Source of the DNA: Escherichia coli
GTDB taxonomy: Bacteria > Pseudomonadota > Gammaproteobacteria > Enterobacterales > Enterobacteriaceae
Strand: one strand, 5' to 3'
NCBI RefSeq assembly: GCF_016903815.1
Contig: NZ_CP069973.1
DNA length: 64,000 nt
The notes below the pieces were generated by a model. That model did not search any database, had not been told where the DNA came from, and saw nothing but the letters and a program-made list of their open reading frames with translations. This document shows positions 19,765 to 64,000 of the stretch, one piece after another (position 1 is the stretch's first letter; every line of letters starts with the position of its first letter). Made by a program: the position numbers and the translations under genes.

Positions 19765-21063
19765 GTGTCAAAGGCAACCGAACAAAACGACAAGCTCAAG
19801 CGGGCGATAATTATTTCAGCAGTGCTGCATGTCATCTTATTTGCGGCGCTGATCTGGAGTTCGTTCGATGAGAATATAGAAGCTTCAGCCGGAGGCGGCG
19901 GTGGTTCATCCATCGACGCTGTCATGGTTGATTCAGGTGCGGTAGTTGAGCAGTACAAACGCATGCAAAGCCAGGAATCAAGCGCGAAGCGTTCTGATGA
20001 GCAGCGCAAGATGAAGGAACAGCAGGCTGCTGAAGAACTGCGTGAGAAACAAGCGGCTGAACAGGAACGCCTGAAGCAACTTGAGAAAGAGCGGTTAGCT
20101 GCTCAGGAACAGAAAAAGCAGGCTGAAGAAGCCGCAAAACAGGCCGAGTTAAAGCAGAAGCAAGCGGAAGAAGCGGCAGCGAAAGCGGCGGCAGATGCTA
20201 AAGCGAAGGCCGAAGCGGATGCTAAAGCTGCGGAAGAAGCTGCGAAGAAAGCGGCTGCAGACGCGAAGAAAAAAGCAGAAGCAGAAGCCGCCAAAGCCGC
20301 AGCCGAAGCGCAGAAAAAAGTCGAGGCAGCCGCGGCGGCACTGAAGAAGAAAGCGGAAGCGGCAGAAGCAGCTGCAGCTGAAGCAAGAAAGAAAGCGGCA
20401 ACTGAAGCTGCTGAAAAAGCCAAAGCAGAAGCTGAGAAGAAAGCGGCTGCTGAAAAGGCTGCAGCTGAGAAGAAAGCGGCTGCTGAAAAGGCTGCAGCTG
20501 ATAAGAAAGCGGCAGCAGAGAAAGCTGCAGCCGACAAAAAAGCAGCAGAAAAAGCGGCTGCTGAAAAGGCAGCAGCTGATAAGAAAGCAGCGGCAGAAAA
20601 AGCCGCCGCAGACAAAAAAGCGGCAGCTGCAAAAGCAGCAGCTGAAAAAGCCGCTGCAGCAAAAGCTGCCGCAGAGGCAGATGATATTTTCGGTGAGCTA
20701 AGCTCTGGTAAGAATGCACCGAAAACGGGGGGAGGGGCGAAAGGGAACAATGCTTCGCCAGCCGGGAGTGGTAATACTAAAAACAATGGCGCATCAGGGG
20801 CCGATATCAATAACTATGCCGGGCAGATTAAATCTGCTATCGAAAGTAAGTTCTATGACGCATCGTCCTATGCAGGCAAAACCTGTACGCTGCGCATAAA
20901 ACTGGCACCCGATGGTATGTTACTGGATATCAAACCTGAAGGTGGCGATCCCGCACTTTGTCAGGCTGCGTTGGCAGCAGCTAAACTTGCGAAGATCCCG
21001 AAACCACCAAGCCAGGCAGTATATGAAGTGTTCAAAAACGCGCCATTGGACTTCAAACCGTAA
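19765..21063 (+). CDS. tolA: Tol-Pal system protein TolA
   Basis: 432 aa; N-terminal MSKATEQNDKLKRAIIISAVLHVILFAALIW, long Ala/Lys/Glu-rich repeat domain II, conserved C-terminal domain. Confidence 0.97.
   Translation: MSKATEQNDKLKRAIIISAVLHVILFAALIWSSFDENIEASAGGGGGSSIDAVMVDSGAVVEQYKRMQSQESSAKRSDEQRKMKEQQAAEELREKQAAEQERLKQLEKERLAAQEQKKQAEEAAKQAELKQKQAEEAAAKAAADAKAKAEADAKAAEEAAKKAAADAKKKAEAEAAKAAAEAQKKVEAAAAALKKKAEAAEAAAAEARKKAATEAAEKAKAEAEKKAAAEKAAAEKKAAAEKAAADKKAAAEKAAADKKAAEKAAAEKAAADKKAAAEKAAADKKAAAAKAAAEKAAAAKAAAEADDIFGELSSGKNAPKTGGGAKGNNASPAGSGNTKNNGASGADINNYAGQIKSAIESKFYDASSYAGKTCTLRIKLAPDGMLLDIKPEGGDPALCQAALAAAKLAKIPKPPSQAVYEVFKNAPLDFKP
20150..20690 (+). repeat. Tandem degenerate coding repeats in tolA domain II (AAEKAAADKKAAAEK-type units)
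   Basis: Repeated gctgcagctga[ag]aa[ga]aaagcggc units visible in the DNA; the source of the low-complexity antisense ORFs in the track. Confidence 0.8.
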
Positions 21064-22498: not shown

Positions 22499-23044
<546 letters not shown>

Positions 23045-23053
23045 GAGAATTGC

Positions 23054-23845
23054 ATGAGCAGTAACTTCAGACATCAACTATTGAGTCTGTCGTTACTGGT
23101 TGGTATAGCGGCCCCCTGGGCCGCTTTTGCTCAGGCACCAATCAGTAGTGTCGGCTCAGGCTCGGTCGAAGACCGCGTCACTCAACTTGAGCGTATTTCA
23201 AATGCTCACAGCCAGCTTTTAACCCAACTCCAGCAACAACTCTCTGATAATCAATCCGATATTGATTCCCTGCGTGGCCAGATTCAGGAAAATCAGTATC
23301 AACTGAATCAGGTCGTGGAGCGGCAAAAGCAGATCCTGTTGCAGATCGACAGCCTCAGCAGCGGTGGTGCAGCGGCGCAATCAACCAGCGGTGATCAAAG
23401 CGGTGCGGCGGCATCAACGACGCCGACAGCTGATGCTGGTACTGCGAATGCTGGCGCGCCGGTGAAAAGCGGCGATGCAAACACGGATTACAATGCAGCA
23501 ATTGCGCTGGTGCAGGATAAATCCCGCCAGGATGACGCAATGGTGGCATTTCAGAATTTCATCAAAAATTACCCTGATTCAACTTACCTGCCAAACGCCA
23601 ATTATTGGCTGGGTCAGTTAAACTACAACAAGGGTAAAAAAGATGATGCGGCGTACTATTTTGCTTCGGTAGTAAAAAACTATCCGAAGTCACCAAAGGC
23701 TGCAGATGCGATGTTTAAAGTCGGCGTCATCATGCAGGACAAAGGTGACACCGCAAAAGCGAAAGCCGTATACCAGCAGGTTATCAGTAAATACCCTGGT
23801 ACTGATGGCGCTAAACAGGCACAAAAACGTCTGAACGCGATGTAA
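23054..23845 (+). CDS. cpoB: Cell division coordinator CpoB (YbgF), TPR protein
   Basis: 263 aa, signal peptide, coiled-coil and C-terminal TPR region; last gene of the tol-pal cluster. Confidence 0.95.
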   Translation: MSSNFRHQLLSLSLLVGIAAPWAAFAQAPISSVGSGSVEDRVTQLERISNAHSQLLTQLQQQLSDNQSDIDSLRGQIQENQYQLNQVVERQKQILLQIDSLSSGGAAAQSTSGDQSGAAASTTPTADAGTANAGAPVKSGDANTDYNAAIALVQDKSRQDDAMVAFQNFIKNYPDSTYLPNANYWLGQLNYNKGKKDDAAYYFASVVKNYPKSPKAADAMFKVGVIMQDKGDTAKAKAVYQQVISKYPGTDGAKQAQKRLNAM

Positions 23846-24009: not shown

Positions 24010-24085
24010 GGGTCGTTAGCTCAGTTGGTAGAGCAGTTGACTTTTAATCAATTGGTCGCAGGTTCGAATCCTGCACGACCCACCA
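24010..24085 (+). tRNA. lysT: tRNA-Lys (anticodon UUU)
   Basis: GGGTCGTTAGCTCAGTTGGTAGAGCAGTTGACTTTTAATCAATTGGTCGCAGGTTCGAATCCTGCACGACCCACCA, 76 nt with encoded CCA. Confidence 0.97.
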
Positions 24086-24220
24086 ATCGCTAAGGTGGAA
24101 GCGGTAGTAAAACGTGAAGGATAACGTTGCGTCAGCAACGGCCCGAAGGGCGAGACGAAGTCGAGTCATCCTGCACGACCCACCACTAACCTAGTTAGTT
24201 GTAGTATCCAGCGTAGTATC

Positions 24221-24296
24221 GGGTGATTAGCTCAGCTGGGAGAGCACCTCCCTTACAAGGAGGGGGTCGGCGGTTCGATCCCGTCATCACCCACCA
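24221..24296 (+). tRNA. valT: tRNA-Val (anticodon UAC)
   Basis: GGGTGATTAGCTCAGCTGGGAGAGCACCTCCCTTACAAGGAGGGGGTCGGCGGTTCGATCCCGTCATCACCCACCA. Confidence 0.97.
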
Positions 24297-24298
24297 CC

Positions 24299-24374
24299 GG
24301 GTCGTTAGCTCAGTTGGTAGAGCAGTTGACTTTTAATCAATTGGTCGCAGGTTCGAATCCTGCACGACCCACCA
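24299..24374 (+). tRNA. lysW: tRNA-Lys (UUU)
   Basis: Identical to the tRNA-Lys at 24010; 2 nt after the preceding tRNA-Val. Confidence 0.97.
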
Positions 24375-24425
24375 CTAATTACGGTGGGTTCGGTGGAAGT
24401 AGTTTGTAGTATCCAGCGCAGTATC

Positions 24426-24501
24426 GGGTGATTAGCTCAGCTGGGAGAGCACCTCCCTTACAAGGAGGGGGTCGGCGGTTCGATCCCGTCATCACCCACC
24501 A
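24426..24501 (+). tRNA. valZ: tRNA-Val (UAC)
   Basis: Identical to the tRNA-Val at 24221. Confidence 0.97.
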
Positions 24502-24504
24502 CTC

Positions 24505-24580
24505 GGGTCGTTAGCTCAGTTGGTAGAGCAGTTGACTTTTAATCAATTGGTCGCAGGTTCGAATCCTGCACGACCCACCA
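24505..24580 (+). tRNA. lysY: tRNA-Lys (UUU)
   Basis: Identical tRNA-Lys sequence. Confidence 0.97.
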
Positions 24581-24726
24581 ATTTTAACATCAAACTCAGA
24601 TGTTAAGCGTGAAGGATAACGTTGCGCCGGCAACGGCCCGTAGGGCGAGCGAAGCGAGTCATCCTGCACGACCTACCAATTTTAAAGATTGGTTCCGAGT
24701 AGAAATCTTTCAGGTAACACCCGTAT

Positions 24727-24802
24727 GGGTCGTTAGCTCAGTTGGTAGAGCAGTTGACTTTTAATCAATTGGTCGCAGGTTCGAATCCTGCACGACCCAC
24801 CA
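24727..24802 (+). tRNA. lysZ: tRNA-Lys (UUU)
   Basis: Identical tRNA-Lys sequence. Confidence 0.97.
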
Positions 24803-24934
24803 ATTTAAAGGTGGTTACTGGTAGAGAACGTGAAGGATAACGTTGCGTTAGCAACGGCCCGAAGGGCGAGACGAAGTCGAGTCATCTTGCACGACCCACC
24901 ATCCTGAATGATTAAAGCAGCATAATCCCGCAAG

Positions 24935-25010
24935 GGGTCGTTAGCTCAGTTGGTAGAGCAGTTGACTTTTAATCAATTGGTCGCAGGTTCGAATCCTGCA
25001 CGACCCACCA
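24935..25010 (+). tRNA. lysQ: tRNA-Lys (UUU)
   Basis: Identical tRNA-Lys sequence; last tRNA of the operon. Confidence 0.97.
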
Positions 25011-25014
25011 ATGT

Positions 25015-25042
25015 AAAAAAGCGCCCTAAAGGCGCTTTTTTG
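25015..25042 (+). terminator. Rho-independent terminator of the lysT tRNA operon
   Basis: aaaaaagcgccctaaaggcgcttttttg directly after lysQ; an exact second copy lies at 25161-25187. Confidence 0.85.
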
Positions 25043-25353
25043 CTATCTGCGATACTCAAAGATTCGAACCTGCAGCAGGTTTGAGTTGAGCGCAGCGAAA
25101 CAACGGAGCCGCTCGCGGCGACGGCCCGAAGGGCGAGCGAAGCGAGTCATCCTGCACGACCCACCAATGTAAAAAAGCGCCCTAAAGGCGCTTTTTTGCT
25201 ATCAGGCATCTCTCAATTTCAATTCTTAACCCTGATGACATACTCCGCGCTTGCTGCGTAAACAACTCTACGTCGGAGGAATAAGACGCAAAGTGTGGCA
25301 TTCGTCATCTCATACGTAATTCGAGTGACTTTTCCCCACCATTCGACTATCTT

Positions 25354-59939: not shown

Positions 59940-60092
59940 CATTTACGCGCTAGTATCGGCTTAACCACTAAACACTCTAGCCTCTGCACCTGGGTCAACT
60001 GATACGGTGCTTTGGCCGTGACAATGCTCGTAAAGATTGCCACCAGGGCGAAGGAAGAAATGACTTCGCCTCCCGTATCTGGAAAGGTGTAC
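59940..60092 (+). ncRNA. Molybdenum cofactor (Moco) riboswitch in the moaA 5' leader
   Basis: About 150-nt structured leader directly upstream of the moaA start with the conserved ...gccuccc... segment adjacent to the RBS; position matches the described moaABCDE leader. Boundaries approximate. Confidence 0.6.
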
Positions 60093-61082
60093 ATGGCTTC
60101 ACAACTGACTGATGCATTTGCGCGTAAGTTTTACTACTTGCGCCTGTCGATTACTGATGTGTGTAACTTTCGTTGCACCTACTGCCTGCCGGATGGCTAC
60201 AAACCGAGCGGCGTCACCAATAAAGGCTTTCTTACCGTCGATGAAATTCGCCGGGTTACGCGCGCCTTTGCCAGTCTGGGCACCGAAAAAGTGCGCCTGA
60301 CAGGCGGTGAGCCGTCTTTACGCCGCGACTTTACCGATATCATCGCCGCTGTGCGGGAAAACGACGCTATCCGCCAGATTGCGGTCACCACCAATGGTTA
60401 CCGTCTGGAACGCGATGTGGCGAACTGGCGCGATGCGGGACTTACTGGCATCAACGTCAGCGTTGATAGCCTTGACGCTCGCCAGTTTCATGCCATTACC
60501 GGGCAGGATAAATTCAACCAGGTCATGGCAGGGATCGATGCTGCATTTGAGGCCGGTTTTGAGAAGGTCAAAGTCAATACCGTGCTGATGCGTGATGTTA
60601 ATCATCATCAGCTCGACACCTTTCTGAACTGGATCCAGCATCGCCCTATCCAGCTGCGTTTCATCGAATTGATGGAAACGGGCGAGGGCAGCGAGCTCTT
60701 CCGTAAGCATCACATCTCTGGTCAGGTTCTGCGTGACGAGCTACTGCGTCGCGGCTGGATCCACCAATTACGTCAACGCAGCGACGGTCCCGCGCAAGTC
60801 TTTTGTCATCCGGATTACGCCGGAGAGATTGGCCTTATCATGCCGTATGAAAAAGACTTCTGCGCCACTTGCAACCGCCTGCGCGTTTCCTCCATTGGTA
60901 AACTCCATCTCTGCCTGTTTGGTGAAGGCGGCGTTAACCTGCGCGATCTGCTGGAAGACGATACCCAGCAACAGGCGCTGGAAGCGCGTATTTCAGCGGC
61001 GCTGCGGGAGAAGAAACAGACCCATTTCCTGCACCAAAACAACACCGGTATTACGCAAAACTTATCGTACATTGGCGGCTAA
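60093..61082 (+). CDS. moaA: GTP 3',8-cyclase (radical SAM)
   Basis: [31 protein letters not shown]...; ORF track extends 27 codons upstream (60012), across the riboswitch. Confidence 0.97.
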
Positions 61083-63684: not shown

Positions 63685-64000
63685 GCACAGAAAACCCCCA
63701 GCTAGGCTGGGGGTTCCGGAAAGCTTTCAGCTTTGAGCCAGTTATTAAAACCCCTTTTGATTTGTTAAAACACCTTGCGGTCTGGCAACTGCAAGTGTCA
63801 AACAAGAAATCAAAAGGGGGTCCCAATGGGGAACGAAAAGAGCTTAGCGCACACCCGATGGAACTGTAAATATCACATAGTTTTTGCGCCAAAATACCGA
63901 AGACAGGTGTTCTACAGAGAGAAGCGTAGAGCAATAGGCAGTATTTTGAGAAAGCTGTGTGAGTGGAAAAGCGTACGGATTCTGGAAGCTGAATGCTGTG
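63685..64000 (+). mobile_element. tnpA: IS200/IS605-family insertion sequence, left end plus 5' part of tnpA (continues beyond window end)
   Basis: Terminal hairpin aaaacccccagc-tagg-ctgggggtt at 63691-63715; a second inverted repeat (63751-63765 with 63803-63820) that would sequester the aaaggggg RBS; ORF from ATG 63826 translating MGNEKSLAHTRWNCKYHIVFAPKYRRQVFYREKRRAIGSILRKLCEWKSVRILEAEC, the conserved N-terminus of IS200 Y1 (HUH) transposases. Left boundary approximate. Confidence 0.8.

Follow-up and report, generated by a model that had tools for sequence, protein, structure and literature searches.

tRNA-linked repeats (TLRs, Rfam family RtT) lie in tRNA and rRNA operons, and the final 18 to 19 nt of each repeat exactly reproduce the 3′ end of the gene upstream (PMC8144298). 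They were described by Egan and Landy in 1978 and by Rudd in 1999 (as cited in PMC8144298), and Escherichia coli K-12 contains 22 of them at ten loci, with one to five per locus (PMC8144298). Some family members yield RNAs, namely rtT RNA from tyrT and RrA, RrB and RrF of rrn operons rrnA, rrnB and rrnD (PMC8144298). The latter three copy the end of the 5S rRNA and are bound by Hfq and CsrA, whereas the TLRs of tRNA operons scored <0.01 as CsrA binders (PMC8144298). No function has been reported for tRNA-operon TLRs in the published sources consulted since the 1978 description. Among functional spacer RNAs of tRNA precursors, 3′ETS-leuZ is mentioned in the same work (PMC8144298). The lysT transcript is approximately 1100 nt long, and RNase P removes its terminator (PMC4176162).

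We analyzed the lysT operon within a 64,000-nt stretch of E. coli DNA, referred to here as the window. The operon occupies window positions 24010-25203, is flanked by cpoB and nadA, and contains seven tRNA genes (24010-25010) that ARAGORN places in the order Lys-Val-Lys-Val-Lys-Lys-Lys. Neither an integrase nor foreign DNA was found in the cpoB-nadA interval. Four repeat units accompany the tRNA genes (Table 1), versus five in K-12 lysT as judged by a parse of the locus; K-12 holds a 98-nt TLR at a site that is empty in the window, such that the arrangement K-51-V in the window corresponds to K-81-r-51-V in K-12 BW25113. The family is present in the K-12 annotation and in Rfam, and the window carries an ordinary variant.

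Table 1. Positions of tRNA genes, repeat units and terminators of the lysT operon in the window.
Feature	Position	Strand	Basis
tRNA-Lys(UUU), lysT position	24010..24085	+	ARAGORN; Rfam tRNA 79.2 bits
TLR/RtT unit 1, short form, 100 nt	24086..24185	+	RF00391 60.6 bits
Unit 1, closing-helix 5′ strand	24113-24122	+	
Unit 1, H1	24125-24140	+	
Unit 1, H2	24141-24151	+	
Unit 1, H3	24154-24162	+	
Extra 18-mer copy, exact (mimic, unit 1 end)	24168-24185	+	
tRNA-Val(UAC)	24221..24296	+	ARAGORN
tRNA-Lys(UUU)	24299..24374	+	ARAGORN
Empty TLR site, 51-nt Lys-Val spacer	24375..24425	+	architecture parse
tRNA-Val(UAC)	24426..24501	+	ARAGORN
tRNA-Lys(UUU)	24505..24580	+	ARAGORN
TLR/RtT unit 2, short form, 98 nt	24581..24678	+	RF00391 50.2 bits; repeat search; fold
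Extra 18-mer copy, one mismatch, ACCTACCA (unit 2 end)	24661-24678	+	
tRNA-Lys(UUU)	24727..24802	+	ARAGORN
TLR/RtT unit 3, short form, 99 nt	24803..24901	+	RF00391 56.4 bits; repeat search; fold
Extra 18-mer copy, one mismatch, ATCTTGC (unit 3 end)	24884-24901	+	
tRNA-Lys(UUU), operon's last gene	24935..25010	+	ARAGORN
Probable operon terminator copy 1, AAAAAAGCGCC-CTAAA-GGCGCTTTTTT	25015..25041	+	hairpin then T run; inverted repeat
TLR/RtT unit 4, long form	25042..25166	+	RF00391 46.7 bits
Unit 4, T-stem 5′ strand GCAGG, then TTTGA and core hairpins	25075-25079	+	
Extra 18-mer copy, exact (mimic, unit 4 end)	25149-25166	+	
Probable operon terminator copy 2, within second 55-nt copy	25171..25197	+	direct and inverted repeats

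A reading of the DNA from its sequence only had noticed copies of the tRNA-Lys 3′ end in four repeats, and these copies are real. When the 18-mer ATCCTGCACGACCCACCA is searched with at most one mismatch, nine matches occur in the 64-kb window where shuffles lead one to expect none; five are the 3′ ends of the tRNA-Lys genes and four are extra copies, each of which (4/4) forms the last part of a repeat unit. The point differences between copies also hold, with one mismatch each in units 2 and 3, where other strains are exact, and none in units 1 and 4. The copied stretch had been given as 19 to 20 nt, and the part identical to the tRNA is 18 nt. The repeats had been assigned to four spacers and treated as alike in length, which describes units 1 to 3: these are short forms located between tRNA genes, and their first base directly follows the CCA of tRNA-Lys. 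Unit 4 is longer and starts after both tRNA-Lys and the first terminator. A repeat search of the window returned families of 48 to 94 nt with 88 to 92% identity, and the material between the direct repeats is 80 to 138 nt long.

The four lysT units are members of the known tRNA-linked repeat family and not a new one. All four exceed the RF00391 gathering score of 45 bits. For units 1 to 3, cmscan aligns the RtT model's 5′ half on the genuine tRNA-Lys, and part of the score comes from the tRNA. Because of this overlap the Rfam extents of these units are too long; we dropped those coordinates (24017-24185 and so on) and set the unit borders from the repeat structure. The match of unit 4 is independent of the tRNA gene, and in strain 7/2, which is identical, PGAP labels this unit “RtT sRNA”. 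We saw neither a loss of RF00391 with the tRNA masked nor a lack of core homology to tyrT. Comparison with the tyrT region of K-12 shows that AACGTTGC..GCAACGGCCCGAAGGG..CGAAGCGA..ATCCT is common to the lysT units, after which the 3′ tail turns to the tRNA-Tyr end. Like the tyrT RtT (rttR, RF00391), the lysT units share the core AACGTTGC..GCAACGGCCCGAAGGG..GAGTMAT, stand directly behind a tRNA gene whose 3′ end their last 18 to 19 nt repeat, and occur in tandem copies; the long-form arrangement of unit 4 is also that of tyrT. They differ in that they copy tRNA-Lys rather than tRNA-Tyr, and in that units 1 to 3 lack about 40 nt of the 5′ half and lie between tRNA genes rather than behind the last one. 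The sequence-only reading had overlooked this named, curated family.

The operon terminator had been reported as present twice, and the duplication is exact: a 55-nt block comprising the tRNA end and the probable terminator occurs at 24993-25047 and again, with 100% identity, at 25149-25203. The second terminator copy had been placed at 25161-25187; it lies at 25171-25197. Both copies read GCGCC-CTAAA-GGCGC followed by TTTTTT, and for the lysT and valU operons this hairpin has been taken to be the Rho-independent terminator (PMC4176162). A consensus terminator scan listed neither copy, an omission probably due to the A and T runs on either side, which lengthen the stem; neither the operon promoter nor either plus-strand terminator was flagged by the terminator/promoter scan. 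The H1 hairpins, which the scan listed as terminator-like on the minus strand, were taken as chance. The layout of unit 4 matches the T1-TLR-T2 arrangement of RrA, RrB and RrF (PMC8144298), with the difference that the twin lysT terminators are identical copies made by a 156-bp tandem unit.

The units fold, by minimum free energy, into a closing helix and three hairpins, and the fold of unit 1 recovers the helix and hairpins with z = -2.5 to -3.0. In an alignment of 47 sequences (A1), 86% of cells are paired versus 29 to 45% with slid partners, and H3 is paired in 100%, by GC, CG, AU and UA pairs. The covariation score in A1 is 0.107 versus 0.046 for shuffles (0/500 shuffles reach 0.107), part of which could reflect common descent and not selection because the 3′ strand of the closing helix is tRNA by definition and the 5′ strand may be tRNA-derived. 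In the long forms, where the T stem follows tRNA identity, its pairing is 87.5% versus 25 to 56% in shifted registers, and the core sits exactly between TTCGA and ATCC of the local T arm (Lys, Pro, Tyr and Arg). The Arg short form makes a nearly full acceptor/T minihelix ending in ACCA; the outer acceptor pairs of the Lys units are unformed.

The sequence-only reading had also proposed unequal recombination among the lysine tRNA copies, and comparison with other E. coli bears this out. In a flank-only search of 59 genomes, sampled by spread over score rank rather than at random, the sequence between the flanks measures 553 to 1292 bp and falls into about 20 length classes, a range of 739 bp. 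Among E. coli genomes the locus has 4 to 6 Lys genes and 1 to 3 Val genes. Every site in 18 other E. coli loci shows the exact presence or absence of a 98- to 100-nt or 156-nt unit, lost or retained exactly between a tRNA 3′ end and its 18-nt copy, and 18 distinct loci, the window locus included, carry 0 to 5 units. In Nissle, among other strains, the absence of unit 1 is exact, and Nissle has no unit at all at lysT. Throughout the parsed E. coli loci the tRNA copies are identical, and within the 18-nt mimics sampled from E. coli there are five different private substitutions. Because the locus varies among strains in the number and sequence of its units, it is not the uniform feature that the sequence-only reading had considered as an alternative. 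Recombination-driven copy-number change at lysT is supported.

Across 5,426 complete genomes, site-specific 45-nt blastn probes, which report presence anywhere in a genome rather than at a given spacer, detect the unit of site 1 in 65%, site 2 in ~43%, site 3 in 75% and site 4 in 33%; sites 2 and 3 cross-match at ~90% identity and were separated by identity band. The sequence that only the long form has is present in 60% of these genomes. These probes replaced megablast counts of site plus spacer (at least 80% covered), which were inflated by the joining of pieces from neighboring units. Citrobacter, Enterobacter, Klebsiella, Pluralibacter and other genera contain orthologs of the units, followed by the same spacers, and therefore the absences in E. 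coli are deletions. The units at the lysT sites are older than E. coli. The same core lies behind tRNA-Lys, Arg, Pro and Ser genes across Enterobacterales and behind tRNA-Tyr in E. coli tyrT. The 18-mer exactly equals the local tRNA in 92 of 112 cases, which represent nine distinct tRNA 3′ ends and include genus-specific variants.

These results are probably best explained by known TLR/RtT members in the lysT operon that take part in recombination. We propose that each unit is a tRNA-derived module, in which a helix closes a conserved three-hairpin core and has as its 3′ strand the 18 nt copied from the tRNA-Lys T-stem and acceptor 3′ end; unit 4 is a tRNA-Lys T arm with the core placed in its T loop. 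Units 1 to 3 lie inside inter-tRNA spacers and would therefore be transcribed within the operon precursor of ~1.1 kb, and unit 4, being between two identical terminators, would be reachable only by read-through. Direct repeats of 18 nt, or of 55 nt in the case of the terminal unit, permit exact, in-register deletion or duplication of a unit, and the identical tRNA genes permit unequal exchange of whole tRNA-plus-spacer blocks, with both routes leading to strain-to-strain variation. At the RNA level, the folded unit may offer a tRNA-like 3′ end and be excised and trimmed by the enzymes that mature tRNAs (RNase P, RNase E and 3′ exonucleases), so that lysT units would leave a short-lived by-product and not a needed RNA.

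We regard this processing to a short-lived by-product as about evenly balanced between right and wrong. Wild-type northern blots with lysT spacer probes, in a design that was not for small spacer RNAs, describe no stable spacer RNA (PMC4176162), and a literature search on small RNAs derived from lysT spacers found nothing relevant. Against a mere by-product, the conserved, covarying structure and the retention across genera argue for more. It is thus possible, if doubtful, that the units are selected RNA modules, acting either as RNase P/RNase E “punctuation” sites in long spacers or as decoys or sponges whose tRNA-Lys-like acceptor end engages processing enzymes, toxins or small RNAs. RrA, RrB and RrF are a precedent, bound as they are by Hfq and CsrA (PMC8144298), but 19 TLRs of tRNA operons were scored <0.01 as CsrA binders (PMC8144298), and the northern blots stand against a stable product (PMC4176162). 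The covariation across genera and tRNA identities, the exact agreement of most 18-mers with the local tRNA, the orthologs kept outside E. coli and the minihelix of the Arg short form all favor selection on the RNA, whereas the natural strains without a unit at lysT, the private substitutions within mimics beside invariant tRNA copies and the unformed outer acceptor pairs of the Lys units do not. The metZWV spacers and 3′ETS-leuZ are sRNA sponges; like the proposed products, they are RNA pieces cut from tRNA operon precursors, but they work through pairing with specific sRNAs and do not belong to the TLRs.

A broader description of the units, as a conserved structured module with the three-hairpin core in a half-tRNA T loop and a closing helix that co-varies with the Lys, Arg, Pro, Tyr or Ser tRNA, would make them either a tRNA-like processing or decoy element or a selfish insertion that targets the T loop; we consider it unlikely, though compatible with the covariation and the tracking of tRNA identity seen across genera. 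Its selfish variant, in which the core acts, or once acted, as a small non-autonomous element, entering the T loop of redundant tRNA copies and leaving the disrupted copy to decay into a TLR, is improbable. The exact position of the long-form core within the T arm and the association of a single conserved core with many tRNA identities fit such an element, but no insertion event was observed, loss explains all E. coli polymorphism, no candidate enzyme is known, and tandem duplication with gene conversion can yield the same pattern.

The integrase footprint suggested by the sequence-only reading fares worse and is very improbable. A unit would then be the remnant of an element integrated in the T loop of a tRNA-Lys gene, and the 18-mer would be the gene's original 3′ end, now displaced (attR). 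The geometry is as expected (an intact tRNA comes before the inserted DNA, and the tRNA sequence from the T loop to the 3′ end then recurs ahead of the original spacer), and T-loop crossover sites, typical of some tRNA-integrating elements, count in its favor. In attL/attR duplications at tRNA genes, too, an insert lies between direct copies of the tRNA 3′ part, and both occupied and empty alleles exist; the exactness of the empty sites is non-discriminating, however, as deletion between direct repeats predicts the same. The inserts of 80 to 138 nt hold no gene and are homologous from copy to copy and to tyrT RtT, and there is no integrase, or cargo, between cpoB and nadA. The same core lies behind five successive Lys genes as well as behind Arg, Pro, Ser and tyrT Tyr genes in many genera, and the lysT units are ancient, orthologous, multi-copy and structurally conserved rather than recent arrivals. 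In addition, simple integration would not lead one to expect the 5′ T-stem strand that the long form retains beside the core. Matches to the core in phage and plasmid collections are almost only large, chromosome-sized records, apart from one 7.4-kb unannotated phage-named Salmonella record, and none is clearly mobile; they therefore give no link to mobile elements. An integrase origin is largely refuted.

Hardly credible is a coding role as small arginine-rich peptides like the “protamine-like” tpr of the tyrT repeats, for although units 1 and 3 contain GTG-start ORFs of 25 to 26 codons (MKDNVASATARRARRSRVILHDPPLT) and units 2 and 4 related ones, we rejected coding potential because the reading frames are not conserved: the core frame reads ARRAR in units 1 to 3 and PEGRA in unit 4, and that of unit 2 shifts after a 2-nt length difference. 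Unit lengths of 76 to 82 nt differ by non-multiples of 3, the compensatory stem changes are an RNA-level pattern, and no Shine-Dalgarno is evident in the sequence.

The feature described here is already known and belongs to a curated family. Natural strains with no unit at lysT show that these copies can be lost. From the sequences, the structure of the family appears conserved and co-varying with its host tRNA. The lysT locus is a compact natural case of repeat-mediated copy-number change within an essential tRNA array, and is relevant to strain typing and to misassembly there.

The lysT segment of the window is 100% identical to that of E. coli strain 7/2. The 18-mer ATCCTGCACGACCCACCA, which comprises the T-stem 3' strand, the acceptor 3' strand, and the CCA of tRNA-Lys, occurs nine times in the window with at most one mismatch, where no occurrence is expected by chance. 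Five of these matches are the ends of tRNA-Lys genes and four are additional copies ("mimics"), each of which a repeat search identified as the closing end of one repeat unit. A 55-nt block containing a tRNA end and the terminator hairpin is duplicated exactly (24993-25047 and 25149-25203); units 1 to 3 are within the transcription unit, and unit 4 is flanked by two identical terminators. The tRNA-Lys 3'-end repeats and doubled terminator described in the sequence-only reading are therefore present, although the copied end is 18 nt long rather than 19-20 nt, the second terminator is at 25171-25197, and only three of the four repeats occupy inter-tRNA spacers, unit 4 being a longer form outside them. 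Neither terminator was listed on either strand by a consensus terminator scan. This miss is probably a limit of the tool and not of the sequence, as the A6/T6 flanks lengthen the stem and leave no T tail.

Features of the lysT operon and known RNA elements in the window
Feature	Coordinates	Remark
Seven tRNA genes	24010-25010	Lys-Val-Lys-Val-Lys-Lys-Lys; between cpoB and nadA
Unit 1	24086-24185	Lys-Val or Lys-Lys spacer
Extra 18-mer copy, unit 1	24168-24185	
Unit 2	24581-24678	Lys-Val or Lys-Lys spacer
Extra 18-mer copy, unit 2	24661-24678	C>T
Unit 3	24803-24901	Lys-Val or Lys-Lys spacer
Extra 18-mer copy, unit 3	24884-24901	C>T
Unit 4	25042-25166	3' of first terminator
Extra 18-mer copy, unit 4	25149-25166	
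Operon terminator, first copy	25015-25041	
Operon terminator, second copy	25171-25197	
CpoB/ybgF intercistronic RNA thermometer	22945-23083	Rfam RF02782, 142 bits; known element just 5' of operon
Molybdenum-cofactor riboswitch	59961-60105	Rfam, 103 bits; known family
STnc490 Hfq-binding sRNA	63693-63816	Rfam, 146 bits; known family

The lysT units are members of the TLR/RtT family. They score 60.6, 56.4, 50.2, and 46.7 bits against Rfam RF00391 (RtT RNA), all above the gathering threshold of 45, and the last unit carries the PGAP label "RtT sRNA" in strain 7/2, K-12 BW25113, and others. According to PMC8144298, RtT units are the tRNA-linked repeats (TLRs), first sighted at tyrT by Egan and Landy in 1978 and tallied in K-12 by Rudd (1999) as 22 copies at ten loci, one to five apiece. 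The same paper gives as their hallmark that the last 18-19 bp repeat how the tRNA or rRNA gene upstream of them ends at its 3' side, and reports that RrA/B/F, the three rrn copies, bind Hfq and CsrA in vitro. When we read the K-12 tyrT region, its repeats shared with the lysT units the core AACGTTGC..GCAACGGCCCGAAGGG..CGAAGCGA..ATCCT, followed by the end of tRNA-Tyr instead of tRNA-Lys. On these grounds the feature is one already known.

Scanning a 20-nt core against one genome per species yielded at least 161 core matches at at least 120 loci. Among the matches listed, 112 of the 161 have a tRNA gene ending at most 130 nt upstream (Lys(UUU), Arg(ACG), Pro(CGG/UGG), or Ser(UGA)), and in 92 of these 112 an exact 18-nt copy of the tRNA's own 3' end comes after the core, with a one-mismatch copy in 9 more; E. 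coli tyrT provides the example for Tyr. The copy also mirrors genus-specific variants: some Citrobacter have Lys ..CACGCCCCACCA, Hafnia has Lys ATCCCGCACG, and both Hafnia and Yersinia have Arg ATCTTCCTGGGTGCACCA. A single array of Citrobacter youngae (minus strand) contains tRNA-Lys variants ..ACGACCC.. and ..ACGCCCC.., each followed by a unit with its own variant, which suggests joint change or joint movement of a tRNA and its unit. Within the sampled E. coli units we found five different private substitutions in the mimics and no difference among the tRNA copies. Over long periods the mimic follows the tRNA, yet it is less tightly constrained than the tRNA itself. Moreover, units with the downstream spacers of E. 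coli sites 1, 3, and 4 appear among the listed matches in Citrobacter, Enterobacter, Klebsiella, Pluralibacter, Phytobacter, and others; the units at these sites therefore predate E. coli.

Some matches have other surroundings. In Brenneria roseae (locus L040) and two loci with the same flank (L124, L125), the core is followed by ..GAGAAATTTGCCTGGCGGC.., resembling the start of a 5S rRNA gene, so that the core would lie upstream of a 5S gene and not downstream of a tRNA. Outside Enterobacterales, an Alcanivoracaceae MAG (L036, with two core copies 156 bp apart) and loci L083 and L112-L114 have core-pattern matches and similar hairpins without a recognisable tRNA 3' copy.

The locus varies widely within E. 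coli. A search with only the flanks (1.5 kb either side), sampled at 59 genomes from top to bottom of the ranking, gave about 20 classes of between-flank length, the shortest 553 bp and the longest 1292 bp. We fetched and parsed 18 E. coli loci, including strain 7/2, which together with the window represent 18 distinct loci. Writing K for tRNA-Lys, V for tRNA-Val, r for a unit, and numbers for nucleotides between, the locus is a modular array with base spacers K-35-V, K-51-V, K-48-K, and K-33-K and a last gene K-4-terminator, to which each site adds, or does not add, a unit of exactly 100, 98, 98, 99, or 156 bp. Comparison across strains, which the sequence-only reading had recommended for copy-number variation, revealed from 0 units (Nissle and three others) to 5 (K-12 type), so number and sequence are not the same in all E. 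coli; one strain has two tandem terminal units, and the window has four units, without the lysW-valZ unit of K-12. Gene numbers range over 4-6 Lys and 1-3 Val per distinct locus, with tRNA copies invariant in sequence across the parsed loci. Probes from the 5' part of each unit, which score presence anywhere in a genome and not in a given spacer, matched 3,549 (65%, site 1), about 2,309 (43%, site 2, at ≥95% identity), 4,062 (75%, site 3), and 1,798 (33%, site 4) of 5,426 complete genomes; a probe for the unique part of the long form matched 3,242 (60%), at 1-5 places per genome.

Because the units at these sites predate E. coli, the absences in E. coli are deletions. Each empty allele corresponds to the occupied allele with everything between the tRNA CCA and the end of the mimic CCA removed, which places the breakpoints at the 18-nt direct repeat. 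Nearby short direct repeats are known to delete readily without RecA. These alleles show that the repeats mediate exact unit loss and duplication, while whole-block changes such as K-48-K-48-K or V-3-K-82-r-33-K (strain FORC 064) are explained by unequal exchange between identical tRNA genes, in agreement with the earlier proposal of recombination among lysine tRNA copies. A further small length variant occurs in strain 47538, which is closely related to the window's strain: its lysT-valT spacer has a 12-bp insertion (47-nt base spacer 3' of unit 1 versus 35 nt). NZ_CP098226.1, filed as a 50-kb E. coli plasmid, carries tRNA-Val, tRNA-Lys, and a long-form unit at about 20287-20599 with 97.5% identity to the window; capture of chromosomal DNA or an error of assembly could explain this.

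Minimum-free-energy folds of units 1 to 3 gave z of about -2.3 to -3.3 for most segments. The predicted structure has a closing helix of CGUGAAGGAU with the mimic's AUCCUGCACG (one mismatch), hairpins H1 (CGUUGC/GCAACG), H2 (GCCC-GAA-GGGC), and a small H3, and the tail ACCCACCA. Across 47 distinct short-form units, aligned from the Lys and Arg loci of a wide range of genera, 86% of cells are paired versus 29-45% with slid partners, and the covariation score is 0.107 versus 0.046 when shuffled (0/500 shuffles reach 0.107). H3 is paired in all sequences, via GC, CG, AU, and UA, and at closing-helix pair 8-71 Lys units have U-A, whereas Arg units mostly have G-C, with A-U in one variant; H2 and the H1 3' strand were fixed by the search pattern and are uninformative either way. 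The 5' strand of Arg units, GCACCAGGGAGGAU, closely resembles a direct fusion of the acceptor and T-stem 5' strands of tRNA-Arg, giving a near-complete acceptor/T minihelix that terminates in ACCA; pairing in Lys units is confined to the inner ten pairs. In long forms, among them unit 4 and the repeats at tyrT, TTCGA is preceded by five bases that pair with the mimic's first five (87.5% of cells versus 25-56% in shifted registers). These bases follow the tRNA (Lys GCAGG/CCTGC, Pro AGAGG/CCTCT, Tyr AAGG/CCTT, Arg GGAAG/CTTCC), and the long form therefore appears to be the local tRNA T arm and acceptor 3' strand with the hairpin core in the T loop. In the single-sequence fold of unit 4, GCAGG pairs with an upstream CCUGC instead and the mimic is unpaired. 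Since both strands may derive from tRNA, part of the structural agreement could reflect descent and not selection.

Units 1 and 3, like their orthologues in other genera, have GGTGG motifs, complementary to CCACC, at their 5' side; in predicted folds these motifs pair with the mimic tail. In the empty lysW-valZ spacer (24367-24397), pairing is possible between the tRNA-Lys 3' end ACCCACC and a GGTGGGT nine bases further 3'.

The primary transcript of lysT measures about 1100 nt; RNase P removes its terminator and separates the tRNAs, RNase E helps in long spacers, and wild-type processing leaves few visible intermediates, with stable spacer RNA not described (PMC4176162). In rrnA, rrnB, and rrnD, a TLR between T1 (87% efficient) and T2 is produced by read-through, and the repeated 3' end is proposed to steer RNase E cleavage (PMC8144298). 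We consider it roughly an even prospect that the lysT units fold, present their tRNA-like 3' end, are excised by the enzymes that mature tRNAs, and finally undergo degradation. As natural strains lack them, they would be tolerated, not required, at this locus. A selected RNA function, as processing signal, decoy, or sponge, is a tentative possibility: covariation and retention across genera favor it, but natural null alleles and the substitutions within mimics weaken it.

A selfish insertion targeting the T loop would account for a single core following tRNAs of many identities, but we saw no event of gain, and we find this origin improbable. The integrase-insertion footprint put forward in the sequence-only reading, whose observation is confirmed and whose interpretation is partly supported, is very improbable: the geometry fits and nothing else does, with no integrase, no cargo, ancient and orthologous units, and no unit in clearly mobile records in phage and plasmid searches. 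Short arginine-rich ORFs run through the units (e.g., MKDNVASATARRARRSRVILHDPPLT; 24114-24194, 24830-24907, 24600-24764, and 25086-25172), recalling the "protamine-like" tpr annotated in the tyrT repeats, but the frame through the core differs between units, making encoded small basic peptides extremely unlikely.

The feature belongs to a family already known, and the window carries an ordinary allele of a strain-variable locus; what is still of interest is the unexplained biology of the TLR family as a whole rather than this instance.
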